The notes under the pieces are model-generated. The model saw only the letters and a list, made by a program, of their open reading frames with translations, did not search any database and was not told where the DNA came from. This document shows positions 23,823 to 32,940 of a stretch of DNA of 64,000 nt, one piece after another (position 1 is the first letter of the stretch; every line of letters begins with the position of its first letter). Both the position numbers and the translations under genes were made by a program. The DNA comes from an uncultured Gemmatimonadaceae bacterium (lineage in GTDB: Bacteria; Gemmatimonadota; Gemmatimonadetes; Gemmatimonadales; Gemmatimonadaceae). The stretch lies in assembly GCA_963790305.1 (NCBI GenBank), contig CAWBOC010000010.1, positions 352,001 through 416,000 of the forward strand. Direction: 5' to 3'.

Positions 23823-24068
23823 TCAGTGTGCGCCGGGTGCGTGCGCGGCGGCGCCGTGTCGCCCGCAGCAGGCGCCGTTGTCTGTCCCGCGCGGCGGTGC
23901 GGCCTGTCCCGCGGGCGCCGCATGACTCTCCTGCGGCGCCGCCGCGTGACCGGCAAAGGCCCGGTTGGTGAGCGCGATAATCGTGGTGACGGCGGCCAGC
24001 AGAAAGAGCACGGAGACCGCCAGGCCAATGAAGCCCGCGCTCATGTCGCCGGGACGGGGAGAGGACAT
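23823..24068 (-). CDS. Small single-TM hypothetical protein with His/Ala-rich tail
   Basis: MSSPRPGDMSAGFIGLAVSVLFLLAAVTTIIALTNRAFAGH... Confidence 0.55.
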   Translation of the reverse strand: MSSPRPGDMSAGFIGLAVSVLFLLAAVTTIIALTNRAFAGHAAAPQESHAAPAGQAAPPRGTDNGACCGRHGAAAHAPGAH

Positions 24069-24092
24069 GGTTTTCGGGATTGAGTTTGGTGT

Positions 24093-24149
24093 CGAACGCG
24101 GAACGCGGAATGCGGAAGCAGTTAATCCGCATTCCGCATTCCGCATTCG
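24093..24149. repeat. Family B inverted heptamer-repeat hairpin
   Basis: cgaacgcggaacgcggaatgcgga ... tccgcattccgcattccgcattcg. Confidence 0.88.
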
Positions 24150-24152
24150 TTA

Positions 24153-24614
24153 CTACGTCACGTTGGCCTTTACGATCTGATCATTTTGCTTGATCTGCTT
24201 CATCACGTCGAGGCCCTTGGTGATGCGGCCGAAGACGGTGTGCACGCCGTCGAGGTGCTTGGCGTTCTGCTCGCTGAGCACCATGAAGAACTGGCTGCCA
24301 CCGGTGTCCTTCCCGGCGTGGGCCATCGACAGTGCGCCAACGACGTGCTTTTGATTCCCGCCCTTGGTCTCGCACTTGATCGTCCATCCGGGACCACCCG
24401 TGCCGACAGGGCCTTTGGCGTGCTCGCCGCCTTTCGAGTAGGGATCGCCGCCCTGGACGACGAAATCCGGAATCACGCGATGGAACTTCGTCCCATCATA
24501 GAACCCGCTGTTGGCGAGCTTCTCGAAGTTCGCCACCGTGCTCGGGGCGTCCTTGTCATACAGTTCCGCGGTGATCGTCCCGCGGTTCGTTTCGATGGTA
24601 GCAGTTTTAGGCAT
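24153..24614 (-). CDS. Cyclophilin-type peptidyl-prolyl cis-trans isomerase
   Basis: [49 protein letters not shown]. Confidence 0.97.
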
Positions 24615-24638
24615 GTCGTGAAGATAGTTGGAGGGCTA

Positions 24639-24717
24639 AGGGTGTCGAGGGTGTCGAGGTCGTCGAGGTGATCGAGGAGAGGCGACGACGTTCCCTCCAT
24701 CACCTCGACGACCTCGG
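24639..24717. repeat. Family C inverted nonamer-repeat hairpin overlapping the nth stop
   Basis: gtgtcgagggtgtcgaggtcgtcgaggtgat ... atcacctcgacgacctcgg. Confidence 0.8.
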
Positions 24718-25438
24718 CGTTTCGACAGGAACCACGAGCGACGACGGACACAAGTCCCACAACGGACACTCTTCGCACAAGCGGACGTCGAGCGACGCAG
24801 ATCGACCGGCCGTGAAAGATCAGCAGGTGCGAGAACAACGTCCACTTCTCTCGCGGCACGATCTTCACCAGATCCTGCTCGATTTTCACTGCGTCGGTCT
24901 GACGCGTGAGGCCCAGACGAAACGACACCCGCGTGACGTGCGTGTCGACCACGATCCCCTCGTTCTGCCCGAATGCGTTGCCGAGGACGACGTTCGCCGT
25001 CTTGCGACCGACGCCCGGGAGATGCGTGAGCTCGTCCATCGTACGCGGGATCTCGCCGCGGTGCTTGTCCACGACCGCCCGAGCCATGCCCACGAGACTC
25101 TTCGTCTTGTTGCGGAAGAACCCCGTGCTCTTGATGCGGTTCTCCAGGTCCTCCGTCTCCGCCTCGGACAACGCGGCCGCGTCGGGGAAGCGCGCGAACA
25201 GCTCCGGCGTCACCATGTTGACGCGCACGTCCGTGCACTGGGCGGACAGAATCGTCGCGACGAGGAGCTCGTAGGGATTCCGGTAGTCGAGCGAGCACTT
25301 CGCGTCCGGGTACGTCTCCTCGAGCCGGCGGATGTACTCGAGCGCGACATCGCGCCCGACCTGCCTCGGCCTCTTGGGAAGCGCCTTACGAGTGACGAAG
25401 GGCGGTTGTGGAGGTGCTGCGCTCGCGCGCGGAGTCAT
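24700..25438 (-). CDS. nth: Endonuclease III (apparent +1 indel near 24779)
   Basis: LLVATILSAQCTD, HhH LPGVGRKTANVV, VDTHV. Removing one base restores the FeS motif C-x6-C-x2-C-x5-C (CVARRPLCEECPLWDLC). ATGA overlap with polX. Confidence 0.93.
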
Positions 25439-27168
25439 GCGCGGGCGCGGCGCGACCTGGCGCGCTCGACGATGGCGTCGGCGTCCCACGTGTTGAGCAC
25501 ATCGGAGGGCTCGAGCCAGCCCTTCCGCGCGATGCCGACGCCGATCTCGGTGACATCCAGCCCCGCCGTCGAGTGCGCATCGGGACCGATTGCGACCGTG
25601 ACGCCTCGCTGCTTGGCGGCCTGACAGGTCTGCCAGTCGATGTCGAGGCGATGCGGGTCGGCATTCAGCTCGACGACGACGCCCAGCTCGGCCGCCTTGT
25701 CGAGCACCGCCTCCATGTCGATCGCGTACGGCTCACGCGTCAGCAGCAAACGCCCGGTCGGGTGGCCGAGAATCGTGAGGTGCGGGTTGTCGAGCGCCTT
25801 GAGGACGCGATCGGTCATTGCCGCCCGATCCATCCCGAATCGCGAGTGCACCGACCCGATGACGAAGTCGAAGCGCTCGAGGATCTCGTCGTCGTAATCG
25901 ACGCGCCCGTCGGCGAGAATGTCGGCCTCGATGCCTTTGAGGATCTTGATTCCATCGAGCGTCTCGTTGATGCGATCGATCTCCTCGTGCTGCGCGACGA
26001 GCGCTTCGCGCGACACCCCGCCGGCGTAGAACGCCGACTCGGAGTGATCGGAGATGCCGATGTAGCTCCACCCGCGCGCCTTCGCCGCCGCCGCCATCTC
26101 GGCGATCGTCGCCTTGCCGTCCGAGTACTGCGAGTGGCAGTGGAGGACACCCTTGATGTCGGCATAGGCGATGAGCGACGGGAGCGCGCGTCGTGAGGCG
26201 GCGTCCAGCTCACCCCGGCCTTCGCGCAGCTCCGGCTCGATGTAGGGCAGCCCGAGCGCGTCGTAGAACGCGACTTCGTCGGGAATCGGAAGGACGTTGC
26301 CGCTGGCGTCCCGCAGCTCATCCTCGGCGAGTGTGAAGCCGCGCTCCGACGCGTGCGCGCGAAGCTCGGTCGTGTGCGACTCGCTTCCCGTGGCGCGCCA
26401 GAGTGCGATGCCGAAGCGCTGCGGCTCCACGCAATGCAGATCGAGTACGGTCCCGTCCACATAACGAATGCAGAGTGATCGTCCCCCCGCGCCGACCACA
26501 TCGCGCACGCCGCCGGCGCGGGCGAACGAGGCGGCGACCGAGGCCGGCGTCTCGCGGCAGGCAGCGACGATGTCGACGTCGCGGACGGTCTCGCGGCGCC
26601 GACGAATCGAGCCCGCGACGAGCGCGCGCTCGACCTCGGGGTGGGCTTCGACCATCGCGAGGAGGCGTCGCGCCTCGATGACCGCGTGCGGGTAGAGGAT
26701 GTAGGCGTTCGTCGACCGCAGGTATCCGATCCCCTTGAGGAGCTTCTCGGCGGTCTTGGGTCCGAAGCCCTTGAGCTTCGCCAGGCGCCCGTCGCGCGCG
26801 GCTTCCTCGAGCTCCTGAACGGTCGAGATGCCGAGCCCTTCGTGGAGCGTGTGGATCTTCGAGATGCCGAGTCCGGGGACGCGGAGCATCTCGAGGAGGC
26901 CTTCCGGCGTCTGCTCGCGGAGCTGGTCGAAGTAGCGCGACTCGCCCGTCTCGCACAGGTCGGCGAGGACGCCGAGCGTGGCCGGCCCGATCCCTTTGAG
27001 CTTGGCGAGGGAGCCATCGCGGTGCATGGGGCAGAGGTCGTCGGTGACGACCTCGAGGACGGCCGAGGCCGCCGAGCGGTATGCGCGCGCCTTGAAGCGG
27101 TTCTCCCCGCTGAGCTCGAGGAGGTCGCTGATCTGGGTGAGGACGTGGGCGGCGGTGCGGGGATCCAT
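25435..27168 (-). CDS. polX: DNA polymerase X / PHP 3'-5' exonuclease
   Basis: ENRFKARAY, GSIRRRRETVRDVD, ATGS, PELREG; PHP motifs HCHSQYSDG, DHS, HPTGR, DAH. Confidence 0.95.
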   Translation of the reverse strand: MDPRTAAHVLTQISDLLELSGENRFKARAYRSAASAVLEVVTDDLCPMHRDGSLAKLKGIGPATLGVLADLCETGESRYFDQLREQTPEGLLEMLRVPGLGISKIHTLHEGLGISTVQELEEAARDGRLAKLKGFGPKTAEKLLKGIGYLRSTNAYILYPHAVIEARRLLAMVEAHPEVERALVAGSIRRRRETVRDVDIVAACRETPASVAASFARAGGVRDVVGAGGRSLCIRYVDGTVLDLHCVEPQRFGIALWRATGSESHTTELRAHASERGFTLAEDELRDASGNVLPIPDEVAFYDALGLPYIEPELREGRGELDAASRRALPSLIAYADIKGVLHCHSQYSDGKATIAEMAAAAKARGWSYIGISDHSESAFYAGGVSREALVAQHEEIDRINETLDGIKILKGIEADILADGRVDYDDEILERFDFVIGSVHSRFGMDRAAMTDRVLKALDNPHLTILGHPTGRLLLTREPYAIDMEAVLDKAAELGVVVELNADPHRLDIDWQTCQAAKQRGVTVAIGPDAHSTAGLDVTEIGVGIARKGWLEPSDVLNTWDADAIVERARSRRARA

Positions 27169-27175
27169 GGCCGGA

Positions 27176-27218
27176 AATATAGCCCTCCTTGACTTCGGTG
27201 ATTTCTTCGGGCTACTCT
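27176..27218. promoter_or_regulatory. Putative divergent sigma70 promoters between polX and the Rad52-like gene
   Basis: Plus strand TTGACT (27189) -18 nt- TACTCT (27213); minus strand TATATT (27181-27176) ending 7 nt before the polX ATG. Confidence 0.45.
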
Positions 27219-27243
27219 CGGAGCCCGGCTTGAGGAGGTGCAC

Positions 27244-27822
27244 GTGCCAAAATCAGACCTGCCGATCGGCGGGGAGTACGCACCCGTGGCCGATCGGATC
27301 GCGCTCTTCTACGAGCGCTTCCCGGCGGGACGGATCATCACCCAGCTCACCATGCACAACCAGCGCGAGGTGGTGTTCCGCGCCAGCGTGTATCGGACGG
27401 AGAAGTCGCGCACTCCGGCGGCGACGGGGTGGGCGAGCGAGCGGATCGGCGATGGGGACATCAACACCGTCGCCTGCCTCGAGAATACGGAGACGTCGGC
27501 GATCGGGCGGGCGCTGGCGAATCTGGGGTTCACGGCGTCGAAGAACCGGCCGAGCCTCGAGGAGATGGAGAAGGCGGCGAGGGCCCGTACGCGGATGGTG
27601 CTCGCCGATCGGTATCAGGGGCCAGCGAGCGATACGCTCGAGGACGTGCTGACGCTGGTTCGAAGCGCTGAGCGATATGGTCTCCGCACTCGCAGGGCGA
27701 CCTGGCTTCGGACCCGGATCCGGCGTGGCCTGTTCACACCCGCTCAGTTGGAGCGCCTCTCCCGCACACTCCGTCGCTGGGTTCGAGCTGACATGGTTCA
27801 GGTCGTCCAATCGCGCTCGTAG
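27244..27822 (+). CDS. Rad52/Rad22-like (phage-type) single-strand annealing protein, putative
   Basis: YAPVADRIALFYERFPAGRI...ENTETSAIGRALANLGF resembles the conserved ETSA(I/V)GRAL...G helix of Rad52-fold phage proteins; RBS gaggagg before GTG. Confidence 0.65.
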   Translation: MPKSDLPIGGEYAPVADRIALFYERFPAGRIITQLTMHNQREVVFRASVYRTEKSRTPAATGWASERIGDGDINTVACLENTETSAIGRALANLGFTASKNRPSLEEMEKAARARTRMVLADRYQGPASDTLEDVLTLVRSAERYGLRTRRATWLRTRIRRGLFTPAQLERLSRTLRRWVRADMVQVVQSRS

Positions 27823-27960
27823 ACGAGTACGCGTGGTCGCCGGCGGGGCGTGTCACCACCTCGCATCTAACAGGCGTCCCGCGGATGCGTAGCCAGACGA
27901 GCCAGTCGACGCCGACAAAGCACGACACGGGGATGAGGATGACGAACGGGAGGCGGTGGG

Positions 27961-28732
27961 GTGCTGCGAGCGTACAGAGAGGCGAGCGACGACGCGGTGG
28001 TTCGCGCGATGCGCGCCGGTGAGGAGCCAGCGATGCGCGAGTTCATCGAGAGGTATCAAACTCTCGTGTTGGTGCAGGCGCGCCGTTTTCGAGTTCCGGA
28101 CGACGAGCGTCAACACTGGACGGCCGAGGCGCTGTACGATGTGGCGCTCTCGCTGATCCGTTCAACGCGTCCGGTGCCGACATCGCTGCCCGGATATCTG
28201 ATCGCGGCCTGTCGTCGAAAAGCCATGATGAGTCAGCGCGCTCGCCGTTCCCGCATGGTGCGAGAGGCGGCCGTTGCGGGCAACGTGGGCGGAGAGCGGG
28301 TCATTGTTGGGACGTGTTCCGAAGACAGCCTTCGCCAGGCGCGCGGTCCAGCGCGCGAGGAGTCGTCGCTGCCCTTGGTCCTCGAGCGCTTGGTGGACGC
28401 GCTCGACGATCGGCTGGATACGAGCGAGAGAACGCTACTCTCGTGGATCGGGGCAACGGGTTCCCTATAGCACCATGGCCACCTGGCTCGAGATCAGCCG
28501 CTCGGCCGTGATCAAGCGCGCCATGCGACTGCGAGTTCGATTGCTTGGCGTGGCGATGGAGTTCGGCCAGACACTCGATACGGCGGACCGGCAGGAGTTG
28601 GTGCGGTTCTTTCGGCGCACCGGCGCGCTCGACGCCATTGCCCTGGCCCGCCTGGAGAACAGTGAGCACGCGGTGGATTCCCGCCGATCGTCGACAGTTT
28701 CCGTACGGGGCGTACCTCAGGAGGACGGCTAG
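27961..28732 (+). CDS. Divergent ECF-type sigma factor with C-terminal extension (apparent +1 G at 28450-28453)
   Basis: Region 2-like SDDAVVRAMRAGEEPAMREFIERYQ...SLPGYLIAACRR; after correction, region 4-like LDTSERTLLSWIGQRVPYSTMATWLEISRSAVIKRAMRLRVRL; RBS gggagg. Confidence 0.7.
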
Positions 28733-28734
28733 CC

Positions 28735-29466
28735 ATGGACGACCGCGATGCAGTGTTTCAGCGCGAGCAGCTCGACAGACTGGAATCCGCGAGCGACCCA
28801 TTGATCGACGTCATCGGATATCTGGAATCCCTTCGACCGATCTCACCCGCGTTTACCGATGAGCGGTTCGTCACCTGGGTCGCGCAAGAAGGGCGCATGC
28901 CTGCAAGCGCCGCTGAGGCGCTTCCACCTGAGGCGGTCGCCACCCTCGCGAGAAGGATCCGCCTGACGGCGGCGGCCGAGCAATCGGGCATGTACCTGGT
29001 GGATCAGCTTCCCGAGCAGGTGGCTGTGCGCGCTGGGTGGCCGGTGAGCTCCGCCATTGTCGAGCTCGCGAGAAATCGTCAGGCAGCTGTGGTCGACCTC
29101 GCCATCGCGGCCGGCACGGGACGCGAGCTCTGGGATGCGGAGTGCGAGAGTGCAGTGGCGGTGCCGGAGGTGCTTCCGCGAGGTGAGTACGTCGCGCTCA
29201 CCGTGAGCGGTGACAGCATGGAGCCGCTGCTGCACTCCGGAGATCTCGTGCTCGTCAAGCGCAGTGGAGAGCTCAAGTCCGGCGCCATTGTCGTGATGCG
29301 GGACACCGATGCGGGATACGTCGTGAAGAAGGTGGGTCGAATCGAGACCCGTTCGGTGGAATTGCTCTCGCTGAATCCGGCCTACGGCCGCCGGCGGGTT
29401 CGACGGACGCGCAGCTCGGTGCTTGGAACGGTCTTGTTACGATGGTGCCAACACGGTGGGACCTGA
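28735..29466 (+). CDS. S24 family (LexA/UmuD/CI-type) autopeptidase-domain protein with a non-HTH N-terminus
   Basis: Cleavage-site-like IAAG, catalytic Ser in VSGDSMEP, Lys in YVVKKV, LLSLNPAY; ATG 2 nt after the sigma stop, with ggagg RBS. Confidence 0.88.
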   Translation: MDDRDAVFQREQLDRLESASDPLIDVIGYLESLRPISPAFTDERFVTWVAQEGRMPASAAEALPPEAVATLARRIRLTAAAEQSGMYLVDQLPEQVAVRAGWPVSSAIVELARNRQAAVVDLAIAAGTGRELWDAECESAVAVPEVLPRGEYVALTVSGDSMEPLLHSGDLVLVKRSGELKSGAIVVMRDTDAGYVVKKVGRIETRSVELLSLNPAYGRRRVRRTRSSVLGTVLLRWCQHGGT

Positions 29467-29509
29467 CGGAGTCACCAGGCCGCATTCTCTGAAGGCAGGA
29501 GGTGCCCTT

Positions 29510-30043
29510 GTGATCCAGCAGAGCATACCAAGCACTTCGTTCTTCACGAATGATGTTGCCGGCCTCATCAAGGTTCTGGTGACCATCGTTGTCCCGACCA
29601 CGGCCGCTATTGTCGCCAGTGTGTGGAAGTTCATGCGCGGGGACCTGCAGGCGGCTGATGCTCGTCTCCATGAGGCTGTCGAGCGCGGAGACGCAGGAAT
29701 CCGTCGTGACATCGACGGGCTCGGGACGCGCGTCGGCGCGTTCGAAACCCGCCAGACCGAGCTCGAGGGCCAGGTACGAGGGATGAGCGATCTCGTTCAG
29801 GCCCAGGCACGCGAGCTCGCGCTGGTCGCGTCGGCTCATGGGACGATCGATCGCCGGCTCATGGAATTGCGAGACGTGAACGAAGGCTTGAGGGCGTCGC
29901 TCACGGCCGCGATCCACTCTGCCGGGCGCGAGTCGACGCATGAAATCGCGCAAGTGCGTGAGCGCCTGGCGATGATCGAAAAGGTGGCGGCGCTAGTCGA
30001 GCGTGGCGTCATGAGGCATGGCACGCGCGATCGGTCGCGATGA
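29510..30043 (+). CDS. Hypothetical protein with N-terminal TM and long coiled coil
   Basis: RBS aggagg before GTG 29510; hydrophobic LIKVLVTIVVPTTAAIVASVW followed by heptad-rich helix. Confidence 0.7.
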   Translation: MIQQSIPSTSFFTNDVAGLIKVLVTIVVPTTAAIVASVWKFMRGDLQAADARLHEAVERGDAGIRRDIDGLGTRVGAFETRQTELEGQVRGMSDLVQAQARELALVASAHGTIDRRLMELRDVNEGLRASLTAAIHSAGRESTHEIAQVRERLAMIEKVAALVERGVMRHGTRDRSR

Positions 30044-30057
30044 TGTCGCGTGCGGGA

Positions 30058-30841
30058 CTATCCGTGCTCGACGACGGTGTGCGCCAGGTGCGTCTGCCCC
30101 TCGGCGCTCGACCCATCGGCGGCGCGCAGCGAATCGTGATGGACATCAAGGTGATGGAGAGCCCGAATGACGAGCGCCTCGAGCTCGCTCGTCGTCGCGA
30201 GCGTGCGATACCCCTTCTTCTCTCCACCGGGAATTGCGCTCGCGAACGGATGCCCTTCGTCTCGCCACGGCCGATGCGCGATCTCGTGCACCTCCGTCGG
30301 CGTGAGATCGGTGCGATAGGACACGAGCGACACACCCGGCCGATCCGCCCGCAAGCCTAACACCAGCTGCAATCCTGAGATGGGCGCCGGCGCCTGGCGC
30401 CGGCTCCGTGTCATCGACGACAACGAAGCACCCATCGACCGGCTCGTAAGGCGACTCCGCCGTCACCCGCGACCACAGGCGCTGATACGGAAACTGGAGA
30501 TAGCACGCGGGCGGTCCCGCGAACGTCCAGTTGCCGACGTCGTACTCCTGCCTCCGTCAGCTCGCTTCGTCACCGATCTCCGAGAAGGAATACAGGCGAC
30601 AACCAAACTCCCAGAACTGATAGCCCTGATACACGAACTCGGCGTACTCCTCCATCGCGTCGGGATCGGCGTCATCGCTCACGAAGTGCTCGAGCGCCGC
30701 ACCCACGTGGCCGAGCAGCACGAACTGATCGCGCCGACGCGTGTCGGTGCCACGCTGCGTCGCCTCGGCGCGGATCGCGGGGAAGGCGACCGCCTCGAGC
30801 GACTCGAGAAACATTTCGTATGGGGTGATTCGCGCGCTCAT
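30058..30841 (-). CDS. Hypothetical protein broken by several apparent indels
   Basis: Three ORF pieces (30557-30847, 30146-30466, 30058-30435) join into one reading MSARITPYE...YLQFPYQRLW...QLVLGLRADRPG...VVEHG. Confidence 0.6.
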
Positions 30842-30863
30842 GATCATTGAGCGCGGGCAGGGT

Positions 30864-31328
30864 TCATGCCTGCGGCGCTTCGACTCCGGCGGCGGCTCTG
30901 AGCCGGCGCACCAGCTGGTGGAGCTGCTGCTCCGTGAAGTCGATCTCCTGTGCGGCCCCTTCGAGATCGAGCAATCCTGCGCGCATCGAGACCGAGAGCT
31001 GATTGAGGTAGCGAACCTTCGCCAGGATCTCTTCCGTCACCTTCCGCAACATGGGGAAGCGCCGCTTGTTCGACAGCGCGCGACGGCACCGGGCATTCAG
31101 CTCATGCTGCGAGTACCCACGCGCAATGGCGATGACGTCTTCCTTCGTTCGGCCGGTCAGATACCCACGATCCGGCGTTCCTGCGTCATCCCAATCATCT
31201 TCGGCGAACCAGAGGCGACCGACGAACTCGAGGCCGTCGTACGCGATGCGTACGGCGACGTTGTACCGCTTGCCGTTCACCTCAATGGTGCCGACGTGCG
31301 GCTGAATGGCCTCGTTCATCGTACGCAT
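30864..31328 (-). CDS. Hypothetical protein
   Basis: 154-aa ORF with normal composition, adjacent to the hydrolase stop. Confidence 0.75.
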   Translation of the reverse strand: MRTMNEAIQPHVGTIEVNGKRYNVAVRIAYDGLEFVGRLWFAEDDWDDAGTPDRGYLTGRTKEDVIAIARGYSQHELNARCRRALSNKRRFPMLRKVTEEILAKVRYLNQLSVSMRAGLLDLEGAAQEIDFTEQQLHQLVRRLRAAAGVEAPQA

Positions 31329-32348: not shown

Positions 32349-32421
32349 TCCGTTCCTCATTGCCGAGGTCGTGAAAGGGGTCTATAATCGACGCCCCCCA
32401 GATGTCTGGAATGAGGTAACG

Positions 32422-32940
32422 ATGACCACAGCCACCGCGAACGCCACCAAGAGTCAAAAGCAGCAATTTCTGGAAGGATTCGAGCGTGAGACGGCGACGA
32501 CGCTGAAGGTCCTCAAGGCGTATCCCGCGGATCAAAGCGAGCTTCGCCCACAGGAGCGAATGAAGACGGCTCGTGAGCTTGCCGCAATGTTCACCATGGA
32601 GATGGCGGCCATCGACGCCGTGGTACGCGGGACGTTTACCTTCCCACCGAAGCCACCACCGATGCCTCAGAACTGGCAGGAGGTCGTCGATGCCTTCGAG
32701 AAGACTCGCGCGCGCACCCTCGAGGGACTGCACGACGTGACCGACGAATCGCTGGCGTCGGGCACGGTCACCTTTCCCACCGCTCCCAAAAAGGTGAGCG
32801 AGTGGCAGAAGCTGCCGTTCGCGTGGTTCCTCTTGTTCGACCAGATCCATCACCGCGGGCAGCTCTCGGTGTATCTGCGCCTGGCGGGCGGCAAGCTTCC
32901 GTCGATCTACGGGCCCACCGCCGACGAGCCCTGGACCTAA
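32422..32940 (+). CDS. DinB family protein
   Basis: RETATTLKVLKAYP, TARELA, IHHRGQLSVYLRLAGGKLPSIYGP. Confidence 0.9.
   Translation: MTTATANATKSQKQQFLEGFERETATTLKVLKAYPADQSELRPQERMKTARELAAMFTMEMAAIDAVVRGTFTFPPKPPPMPQNWQEVVDAFEKTRARTLEGLHDVTDESLASGTVTFPTAPKKVSEWQKLPFAWFLLFDQIHHRGQLSVYLRLAGGKLPSIYGPTADEPWT

Follow-up and report, generated by a model that had tools for sequence, protein, structure and literature searches.

We analysed a 64,000-nucleotide stretch of the genome of an uncultured Gemmatimonadaceae bacterium (assembly GCA_963790305.1, contig CAWBOC010000010.1, positions 352,001 to 416,000 of the forward strand; the whole stretch is called the window here, and its genome G000) around a plus-strand gene cluster that a first-pass annotation had described, together with the divergent polX-nth pair, as a candidate DNA-damage module. 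As judged by comparing gene order and sequence across relatives, the conserved unit is three genes and not six, namely those for a Rad52-fold protein (27244..27822), a divergent extracytoplasmic function (ECF)-type sigma factor (27961..28732) and a protein with an S24 peptidase domain (28735..29466). The best reading of this trio, in which we place moderate confidence, is that of an SOS-induced ECF-type sigma factor held by a LexA-type, self-cleaving anti-sigma factor.

Conservation of the three-gene unit

A search of genome contigs with an alignment of the Rad52-like protein retrieved 206 relatives, and the locus counts given here rest on the best 80 of these 206, which come almost entirely from Gemmatimonadota assemblies. 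Among these 80 loci the sigma gene follows in 76 and the S24 gene in 69, and ten of the 11 incomplete loci reach a contig end within 274 nt of the last gene. Where enough sequence was available, the order Rad52-like, sigma, S24 was held in 69 of 70 Gemmatimonadota loci, a recurrence far beyond chance. The exception (L071:1044-1700) carries the Rad52-like gene and its LexA box (see below), and neither a sigma nor an S24 gene was found within 3.8 kb downstream, profile searches included. Of 68 loci, 40 have a 4-nt overlap between the stop of the sigma gene and the start of the S24 gene, and in 55 the two genes are at most 2 nt apart; in the window the S24 gene begins 2 nt past the sigma stop (28730-28732).

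Furthermore, searching 41 related genomes for the S24 protein recovered full-length homologues in each of the eight further genomes of the window's genus and also in three genera besides it. Within the genus the trio occupies the same site, between polX and convergent small open reading frames (ORFs), and while the flanking proteins are 88-97% identical, the trio proteins reach only 40-55% in the genomes G002, G003, G006 and G007. Resolved by domain, the comparison of the window with G002 gives 95% identity for the N-terminal domain of the Rad52-like protein and 23% for its C-terminal domain, 44-45% for the sigma factor, and 40% and 61% for the N-terminal and catalytic domains of the S24 protein, respectively.

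The gene neighborhood expected by the first-pass annotation was thus conserved in part: the order of the trio holds, whereas polX-nth and the gene for a membrane coiled-coil protein, both counted into the module there, stand beside it only in close relatives. Just 6 of the 80 loci, all from close relatives, have the polX-nth pair ahead of the trio, the adjacency being limited to the genus of the window, and of 20 polX loci from other genera none has a LexA box before the gene (none of 19 when the unpublished genome G015 is excluded). On these two grounds polX-nth was discarded as an SOS partner of the trio. In other lineages the flanks comprise HtrA, M1 peptidase, OtsAB, SDR/dehydrogenases, kinases and similar families, with no phage genes among the flanking families of the 80 loci.

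The S24 protein as a candidate anti-sigma factor

The S24 domain of the third protein (PF00717, E 5.4e-21) contains Ala125-Ala126-Gly127, Ser161 and Lys198, each invariant in 66 of 66 sequences, which indicates selection on this protein. By sequence it belongs to the Peptidase S24 group, having both the Ser/Lys dyad and the Ala-Gly site, and its layout comprises a helical N-domain (about residues 3-83), the Ala125-Ala126-Gly127 cleavage site and a catalytic domain with Ser161 and Lys198. Structural comparison agrees, since residues 114-240 of the model align with LexA (aligner VIA, Z 14.2, root mean square deviation (rmsd) 2.6, 122 residues aligned) and residues 113-237 with a fragment of lambda CI that holds the cleavage region (Z 11.5). 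The earlier assignment as a LexA-type protein of the self-cleaving kind, coupled to the sigma gene, is therefore upheld by PF00717 and by the invariant cleavage and catalytic residues. LexA proper was ruled out on three grounds: the LexA family TIGR00498 matches over residues 123-234 only, with 28.2 bits against a cut-off of 110.95, the N-terminus is helical, and a separate true lexA lies at G000:C6:334283-334888.

The N-domain (residues 3-83) was modelled as three long helices without a helix-turn-helix, and Pfam and NCBIfam searches returned no DNA-binding family for it. The zinc-binding (class I) anti-sigma motif H-x3-C-x2-C is absent from residues 1-122, and a comparison of the N-domain with the ESM Atlas, in which all scores fell below 0.8, was uninformative. 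For the second protein, a profile built from 70 homologues matches the ECF sigma factor CnrH (4cxf) across regions 2-4 with E 1.9e-7, in agreement with its first description as a divergent ECF-type sigma factor.

The interaction of the two proteins was modelled with the intact sigma factor of G005 and its own S24 protein, both supplied as alignments, alongside three controls. The complex scored 0.79 against 0.03 for the best control; of 157 solved complexes 116 attain this mark, as do 2 of 215 mismatched pairs, a rough calibration only, as our own alignments were used. The runs agreed in at least 62% of contacts, and the predicted local distance difference test (pLDDT) value of the partner was at least 77. 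In the model, residues 21-81 of the S24 protein touch residues 17-67 and 137-223 of the sigma factor, as is typical of anti-sigma factors, and the helical N-domain is predicted to sit between sigma regions 2 and 4. The model supports binding of the sigma factor by the S24 protein without demonstrating it, and likeness to the sigma/anti-sigma complexes that have already been solved may contribute to its passing. The proposal of the first-pass annotation that cleavage frees a sigma factor fits this predicted complex.

A candidate LexA operator in Gemmatimonadota

The promoter of the operon in the window (27189..27221, plus strand) consists of a -35 element TTGACT (27189-27194), the repeat TTCGG-N7-TTCGG (27194-27210) and a -10 element TACTCT (27213-27218), with a third, imperfect repeat CTCGG at 27217-27221. 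In its common form, TTCGG-N6-TTCGG, the motif occurs exactly and at most 250 nt upstream of the Rad52-like gene in 77 of the 80 loci, the remaining three having it inverted (two loci) or with a single mismatch (one locus), and none of 1451 windows drawn at random from these loci contains the motif. It occupies the spacer of a sigma-A-like promoter, flanked by TTG and TAnnnT. In G000 it recurs in the same promoter register before lexA (two copies), imuA of imuA-imuB-dnaE2, a radical-SAM gene, ruvB and gyrB, and with one mismatch upstream of recA, which is present in this genome; the operator positions are C6:334195-334236 (lexA promoter), C7:247072, C7:249652, C9:681153, C9:462043 and C13 upstream of 174586.

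lexA itself is present in 41 of 41 relatives, with 95-100% conservation inside the genus. All 25 loci in which its start could be placed have two exact boxes upstream of it (24 of 24 without G015), with five further loci lacking a located start, and 14 of these 25 genomes are without the trio. The possibility that TTCGG-N6-TTCGG is the sigma factor's own promoter was rejected, since the motif precedes lexA in the 14 trio-less genomes and a second copy lies downstream of the -10 element. As the operator is common to the trio, lexA, imuA, ruvB and recA, the trio looks like a member of the LexA regulon, and we infer that TTCGG-N6-TTCGG is a candidate LexA operator of Gemmatimonadota and the trio an SOS operon. 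This speaks against the LexA-independent circuit that had first been suggested.

The two halves of the candidate operator repeat directly with a period of 11 bp, and its centre is T-rich. The alphaproteobacterial LexA box, GTTC-N7-GTTC, is likewise a direct repeat with an 11-bp period, although its sequence differs from the TTCGG-N6-TTCGG found here. A literature search, in sources available in part, gave no description of this motif for Gemmatimonadota. Additionally, G000 encodes a second LexA-like paralogue (C9:139131-139724), 36% identical to LexA over its full length, which is found in many relatives of the family.

The Rad52-fold protein

The first protein of the operon (192 aa) matches phrog_11717 with E 8.4e-26 and has no match in Pfam, its Rad52 family included. 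In its AlphaFold2 (AF2) model (pLDDT 80.8), three helices come after a core of the order alpha-beta-beta-beta-alpha. Foldseek placed Mgm101, Sak of phage 80-alpha and human RAD52 on top, with a best E of 6.8e-3, and among 48,161 chains VIA ranked Mgm101 first (Z 8.0, rmsd 3.6, 91 aligned), RAD52 next (Z 7.8) and Sak seventh (Z 7.3), while a PDB profile search with the alignment gave no match. A Rad52 beta-beta-beta-alpha core is accordingly predicted, with middling scores, and the first description of the protein as Rad52-like is borne out by the fold model.

The N-domain (residues 1-115) is conserved and of the phage single-strand-annealing type, and the three helices at the C-terminus (about residues 127-191) form a hypervariable domain. 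The N-domain recurs in at least 591 viral contigs, where its neighbors are RusA, replication initiators, DnaB or integrase. In 80 viral loci carrying it, a sigma or S24 partner stood beside it in none, the sole S24-type match being unrelated, 3 kb away and on the opposite strand. The protein shares with the Rad52/Mgm101/Sak annealing proteins an N-domain fold that ranks these families first and phage homologues that sit in recombination modules; it differs from them in its additional hypervariable three-helix C-domain and in leading a chromosomal regulatory operon. The alleles of this C-domain go together with those of the sigma and anti-sigma factors, so that a sensor role of the Rad52-like protein is conceivable.

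A repeated locus-specific element and variable cargo

A locus-specific element (GTmAC ... GGTG/GCATCT ...) is located at the stop of the Rad52-like gene or shortly after it, i.e. before the sigma gene, and a cognate copy is found just past the S24 stop. In the window, element 1 (GTGTCACCAnnnCGCATCT...) spans 27850..27880 between the Rad52-like and sigma genes, and element 2 (GAGTCACCAnnnCGCATTCT...) spans 29469..29499, directly after the S24 stop and before the cargo gene, both on the plus strand. The cognate copies agree at 19 or more of 26 positions in 25 of 63 loci, non-cognate pairs in 8 of 189 cases; for 20 or more positions the figures are 15 of 63 and 2 of 189. The genome of G003 contains exactly two copies of one and the same 24-mer, one ahead of the sigma gene and one ahead of a secreted-protein/RHS operon. 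Element 1 is a putative sigma-dependent autoregulatory promoter, the second copy of which would serve the cargo. A search of all of G000 for element 1 returned one exact site, with one-mismatch sites being uninterpretable. Inspection by eye discarded a hairpin or terminator, the stems being too short and inconsistent, and an Rfam search of 24000-31000 yielded only a chance-level miRNA match (E 0.49).

The cargo varies among lineages. In the window it is a gene for a membrane-anchored coiled-coil protein of 177 aa (29510..30043, plus strand), which is found only in the window, G004 and G005 and belongs to no family in Pfam, NCBIfam or PADLOC; in the ESM Atlas the closest clusters consist of small phage proteins (score 0.90), no more than a lead. 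Regarded at first as a fixed member of the module, this gene turns out to be one of several alternative cargoes. Same-strand genes for RHS-repeat proteins of 1100-1900 aa follow the S24 gene in L039, L055, L065, L069, L082, L094, L096, L101, L021 and L022, an M1-peptidase-like gene does so in one clade and small ORFs in other loci, and most loci have no toxin nearby. In several divergent clades the giant RHS genes stand directly after the trio (L069:8453-12553, L101:3219-6870, L055:8185-12594, L021:2196-7709 and L022:381-6056), and they are often preceded by a gene for a family-less secreted protein of about 180 aa; in G003 the RHS genes follow a copy of the element that stands before the sigma gene.

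Some genomes hold two or three copies of the trio. L039 and L096 belong to one genome and L094 and L101 to another, all four copies having an RHS gene after them, and L039 and L096 carry the LexA box in inverted form. Between L039 and L096 the N-domain of the Rad52-like protein is 87% identical, while its C-domain, the sigma factor and the anti-sigma N-domain share only 26-31% (C-domain 31%, sigma 29%).

State of the copy in the window

Compared with its relatives, the window carries three one-base insertions inside 3.7 kb, in nth, the operator and the sigma gene, none of them in a long homopolymer; their clustering is unexplained. Both frameshifts, that of the sigma gene and that of nth, had escaped the first-pass annotation. 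A single additional base in nth, near 24779-24781 and absent from four of four aligned relatives, shifts the Fe-S motif C-x6-C-x2-C-x5-C and the stop (24702-24700) into another frame. An extra C at 28449 splits the sigma gene into 27961-28448 in one frame and 28450-28732 in another, whereas the frame is uninterrupted in all six same-genus relatives having that part, the intact length being about 256 aa in relatives. Finally, the operator spacing is N7 in the window and N6 in relatives, with an extra A at 27201 that is missing from four of four covering contigs of relatives. The copy in the window may consequently be inactive or mis-assembled.

If the insertions are real, the module of this genome would be a decaying pseudogene cluster in which sigma factor, nth and operator spacing have been broken and the proposed circuit is inoperative, a reading to which we give somewhat less than an even chance. 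In its favor, besides the three insertions and the operator base missing from relatives, the sigma gene alone was found split when 69 proteins of relatives were aligned to G000, and a genome-wide count of frame switches gave 60 per Mb, relatives having 37 per Mb, and so speaks against a very noisy assembly; the count is crude, and it and the 69-protein comparison suggest a moderate error rate, neither settling the matter of assembly noise. Against it, the S24, Rad52-like and cargo genes are intact and 82-92% identical to relatives, and a radical-SAM gene elsewhere in G000 is also split, so that assembly indels do occur. The latter gene, preceded by a LexA box (G000:C7:247116-248203; L107:317-1404), is divided into ORFs of 154 and 208 aa, which align to successive stretches of the Radical_SAM profile, and constitutes a further frame break of the assembly. 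Soil sequencing runs containing relatives (shares 0.13 or less) held no read or contig spanning 24779-24781 or 28449. Decay and assembly error are both possible causes of the insertions.

Other explanations of the trio

Turning to the trio as a family, it could be a conflict module acting in phage defence or interbacterial competition, in which the phage-derived Rad52-like protein rather than RecA would sense single-stranded DNA, trigger cleavage of its cognate anti-sigma factor via its allele-specific C-domain and switch on toxins such as RHS proteins. This we consider unlikely, though it has several observations on its side: the patchy distribution with several copies in some genomes; flanks that are 88-96% identical within the genus, yet only 23% identity in the Rad52-like C-domain, 44% in the sigma factor and 40% in the S24 N-domain; two copies in one genome that agree in 87% of the Rad52-like N-domain and in 31% and 29% of its C-domain and the sigma factor; RHS-repeat operons downstream in at least ten loci of several clades; the occurrence of the N-domain family in phage recombination modules; and, among the fold matches, a solved structure in which a phage Sak protein is in complex with a repressor. 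Set against these are the LexA box, which indicates ordinary SOS control, the absence of a toxin near most loci and the lack of any PADLOC 2.0 match (2023 library) for the four proteins at E up to 0.01.

A quite improbable alternative takes the S24 protein as a CI/LexA-like DNA-binding repressor with an unusual helical domain, which would bind the locus-specific elements and derepress them by self-cleavage, the sigma factor being only a downstream activator, in the manner of PrtR/PrtN. Operators at two promoters are the usual arrangement for S24 repressors. Moreover, the elements vary between loci just as the S24 N-domain does, and their conserved blocks stand closer together than a typical ECF -35/-10 pair. 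Against this reading, the three long helices of the N-domain include no helix-turn-helix and match no DNA-binding family, the domain docks on regions 2 and 4 of the sigma factor in the complex model with a score far above the controls, and the stop/start overlap of the two genes, seen in 40 of 68 loci, is an arrangement classic for sigma/anti-sigma pairs.

That the cluster is merely a domesticated prophage fragment without function of its own, the alternative raised in the first-pass annotation, is very improbable: the viral relatives of the Rad52-like N-domain (at least 591 contigs) and the commonness of S24 domains in phage repressors are countered by the location of the trio in chromosomes with housekeeping flanks in every lineage sampled, by the absence of a sigma or S24 partner from all 80 viral loci and by the selection that the invariant catalytic and cleavage-site residues indicate.

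Proposed mechanism and its weighing

For an SOS-induced sigma factor held by a self-cleaving anti-sigma factor, the following sequence of events can be proposed. DNA damage would lead to RecA filaments and self-cleavage of LexA, upon which the operon would be transcribed, as its shared operator suggests. Because their stop and start codons overlap, sigma and anti-sigma factor would be made together, and the helical N-domain of the latter is predicted to clamp sigma regions 2 and 4. A continued signal from RecA and single-stranded DNA would cause self-cleavage at the invariant Ala-Ala|Gly, the Rad52-like protein possibly presenting this signal through its allele-specific C-domain. The sigma-bound fragment ending in ...AA would then be degraded by ClpXP, by analogy with cleaved LexA and RseA, and the freed sigma factor would read the locus-specific element before its own gene and after the anti-sigma gene, thereby expressing the membrane coiled-coil protein in the window and RHS-repeat operons in other lineages.

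Several points weigh against this reading. A single intact sigma sequence reaches only 24.5 bits with TIGR02937, below the cut-off of 42.9, and has no Pfam sigma domain match. The whole sigma-binding region stays on one cleavage fragment, so that release needs an extra degradation step. The conserved blocks of the element fit a textbook -35/-10 pair poorly, GTmAC-N17-18-TGAGAG being our own reading, and the second element was not seen in about half of the loci and in none of the M1-peptidase clade. The Rad52-like C-domain covaries only weakly with its partners (Spearman 0.27-0.34). When the phylum was sampled evenly, matches came from 20 of 301 genomes (14 of 69 in the family of the window, 3 of 125 in a second family), and the trio is accordingly an accessory, patchy module and not a core repair circuit. 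The copy in the window has a broken sigma frame and an N7 operator. Overall, the evidence is computational throughout, with cleavage, binding, induction and transcription start remaining proposals.

A more far-reaching variant would make the Rad52-fold protein a dedicated, allele-specific sensor that, upon loading onto single-stranded DNA from damage or from phages, serves via the hypervariable C-domain as co-protease for its own anti-sigma factor, forming an insulated, RecA-independent switch that turns on a regulon of RHS toxins or membrane effectors private to its sigma factor; several such Rad52-gated switches could then coexist in one genome. We hold this variant to be rather unlikely.

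Comparison with known systems

With LexA, UmuD and lambda CI the S24 protein shares the catalytic fold, the Ser-Lys dyad and an Ala-Gly site preceded by Ala, and the trigger is probably the same; it differs in that its N-domain is helical and a predicted holder of a sigma factor, not a winged-helix DNA binder, the true LexA being encoded separately. Like the partners of ECF sigma factors such as RseA (of sigmaE), FecR and RsgI, it is encoded by a gene that follows and overlaps that of its sigma factor, is predicted to lie between regions 2 and 4 and would release its partner by proteolysis. Autoproteolytic anti-sigma factors (FecR, RsgI) are described in the portions of the literature available to us. 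RseA, FecR and RsgI are membrane proteins that are cut outside the cytoplasm or within the membrane, whereas the protein described here is cytoplasmic, carries an S24 domain and has no zinc-binding anti-sigma motif. Within those same portions, a search gave no description of an S24-type anti-sigma factor.

SOS-controlled toxin cascades include that of Clostridium, leading from LexA via the sigma factor UviA to a bacteriocin, and the control of pyocins by PrtR/PrtN. There, as proposed here, DNA damage acts through a dedicated transcription factor on toxin or release genes; the trio would differ in stacking two damage-sensitive steps, the LexA operator and the self-cleaving anti-sigma factor, and in having a Rad52-fold protein first in the operon.

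Surroundings of the module in the window

Upstream, on the minus strand, polX (25435..27168), encoding a PolX core and PHP domain (Pfam pol-beta thumb, PHP and HhH domains), is divergent from the module, and nth (24700..25438), encoding endonuclease III, was identified by reading across three frames (Pfam HhH-GPD, E 1.4e-23). The nth start codon ATG (25438-25436) overlaps the polX stop codon TGA (25437-25435), i.e. the genes are ATGA-coupled, and a 75-bp gap (27169-27243) separates polX from the plus-strand gene with its GTG start at 27244. This coupling, the gap, the 2-nt distance between sigma and S24 genes and the ORF of the transmembrane coiled-coil protein all agree with the coordinates first reported. 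A cyclophilin gene (24153-24614, minus strand) flanks nth.

Downstream, genes converging on the cluster comprise three small conserved ORFs, an alpha/beta hydrolase gene, a DinB-family gene and a deacetylase gene. The three ORFs (30058-31328, minus strand; 125, 96 and 154 aa) are 88-97% identical across the genus and have no family in Pfam or NCBIfam. The DinB-family protein (32380-32940, plus strand), with a damage-inducible fold (Pfam E 3.3e-11), is encoded 2.3 kb downstream of the module and is conserved in the genus. Near these flanks (cyclophilin, alpha/beta hydrolase, DinB, deacetylase) no integrase, structural or packaging genes were found, and the earlier remark that phage genes are not adjacent to the cluster accords with these housekeeping families.

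Implications

If the proposed reading is correct, the S24 protein would represent a new class of anti-sigma factor, cytoplasmic and self-destroying by the LexA mechanism, in which SOS autoproteolysis and the release of an ECF sigma factor, the best-studied pair of signalling devices in bacteria, are joined in one protein. Stacking a LexA operator on a self-cleaving anti-sigma factor would create a two-step filter, such that only sustained damage would switch on the sigma regulon, and the downstream genes suggest that RHS toxin operons may be under DNA-damage control. Furthermore, the naturally diverged and apparently insulated alleles could serve as orthogonal damage-triggered switches. For the poorly studied soil phylum Gemmatimonadota, our analysis proposes a LexA operator and a first SOS regulon.

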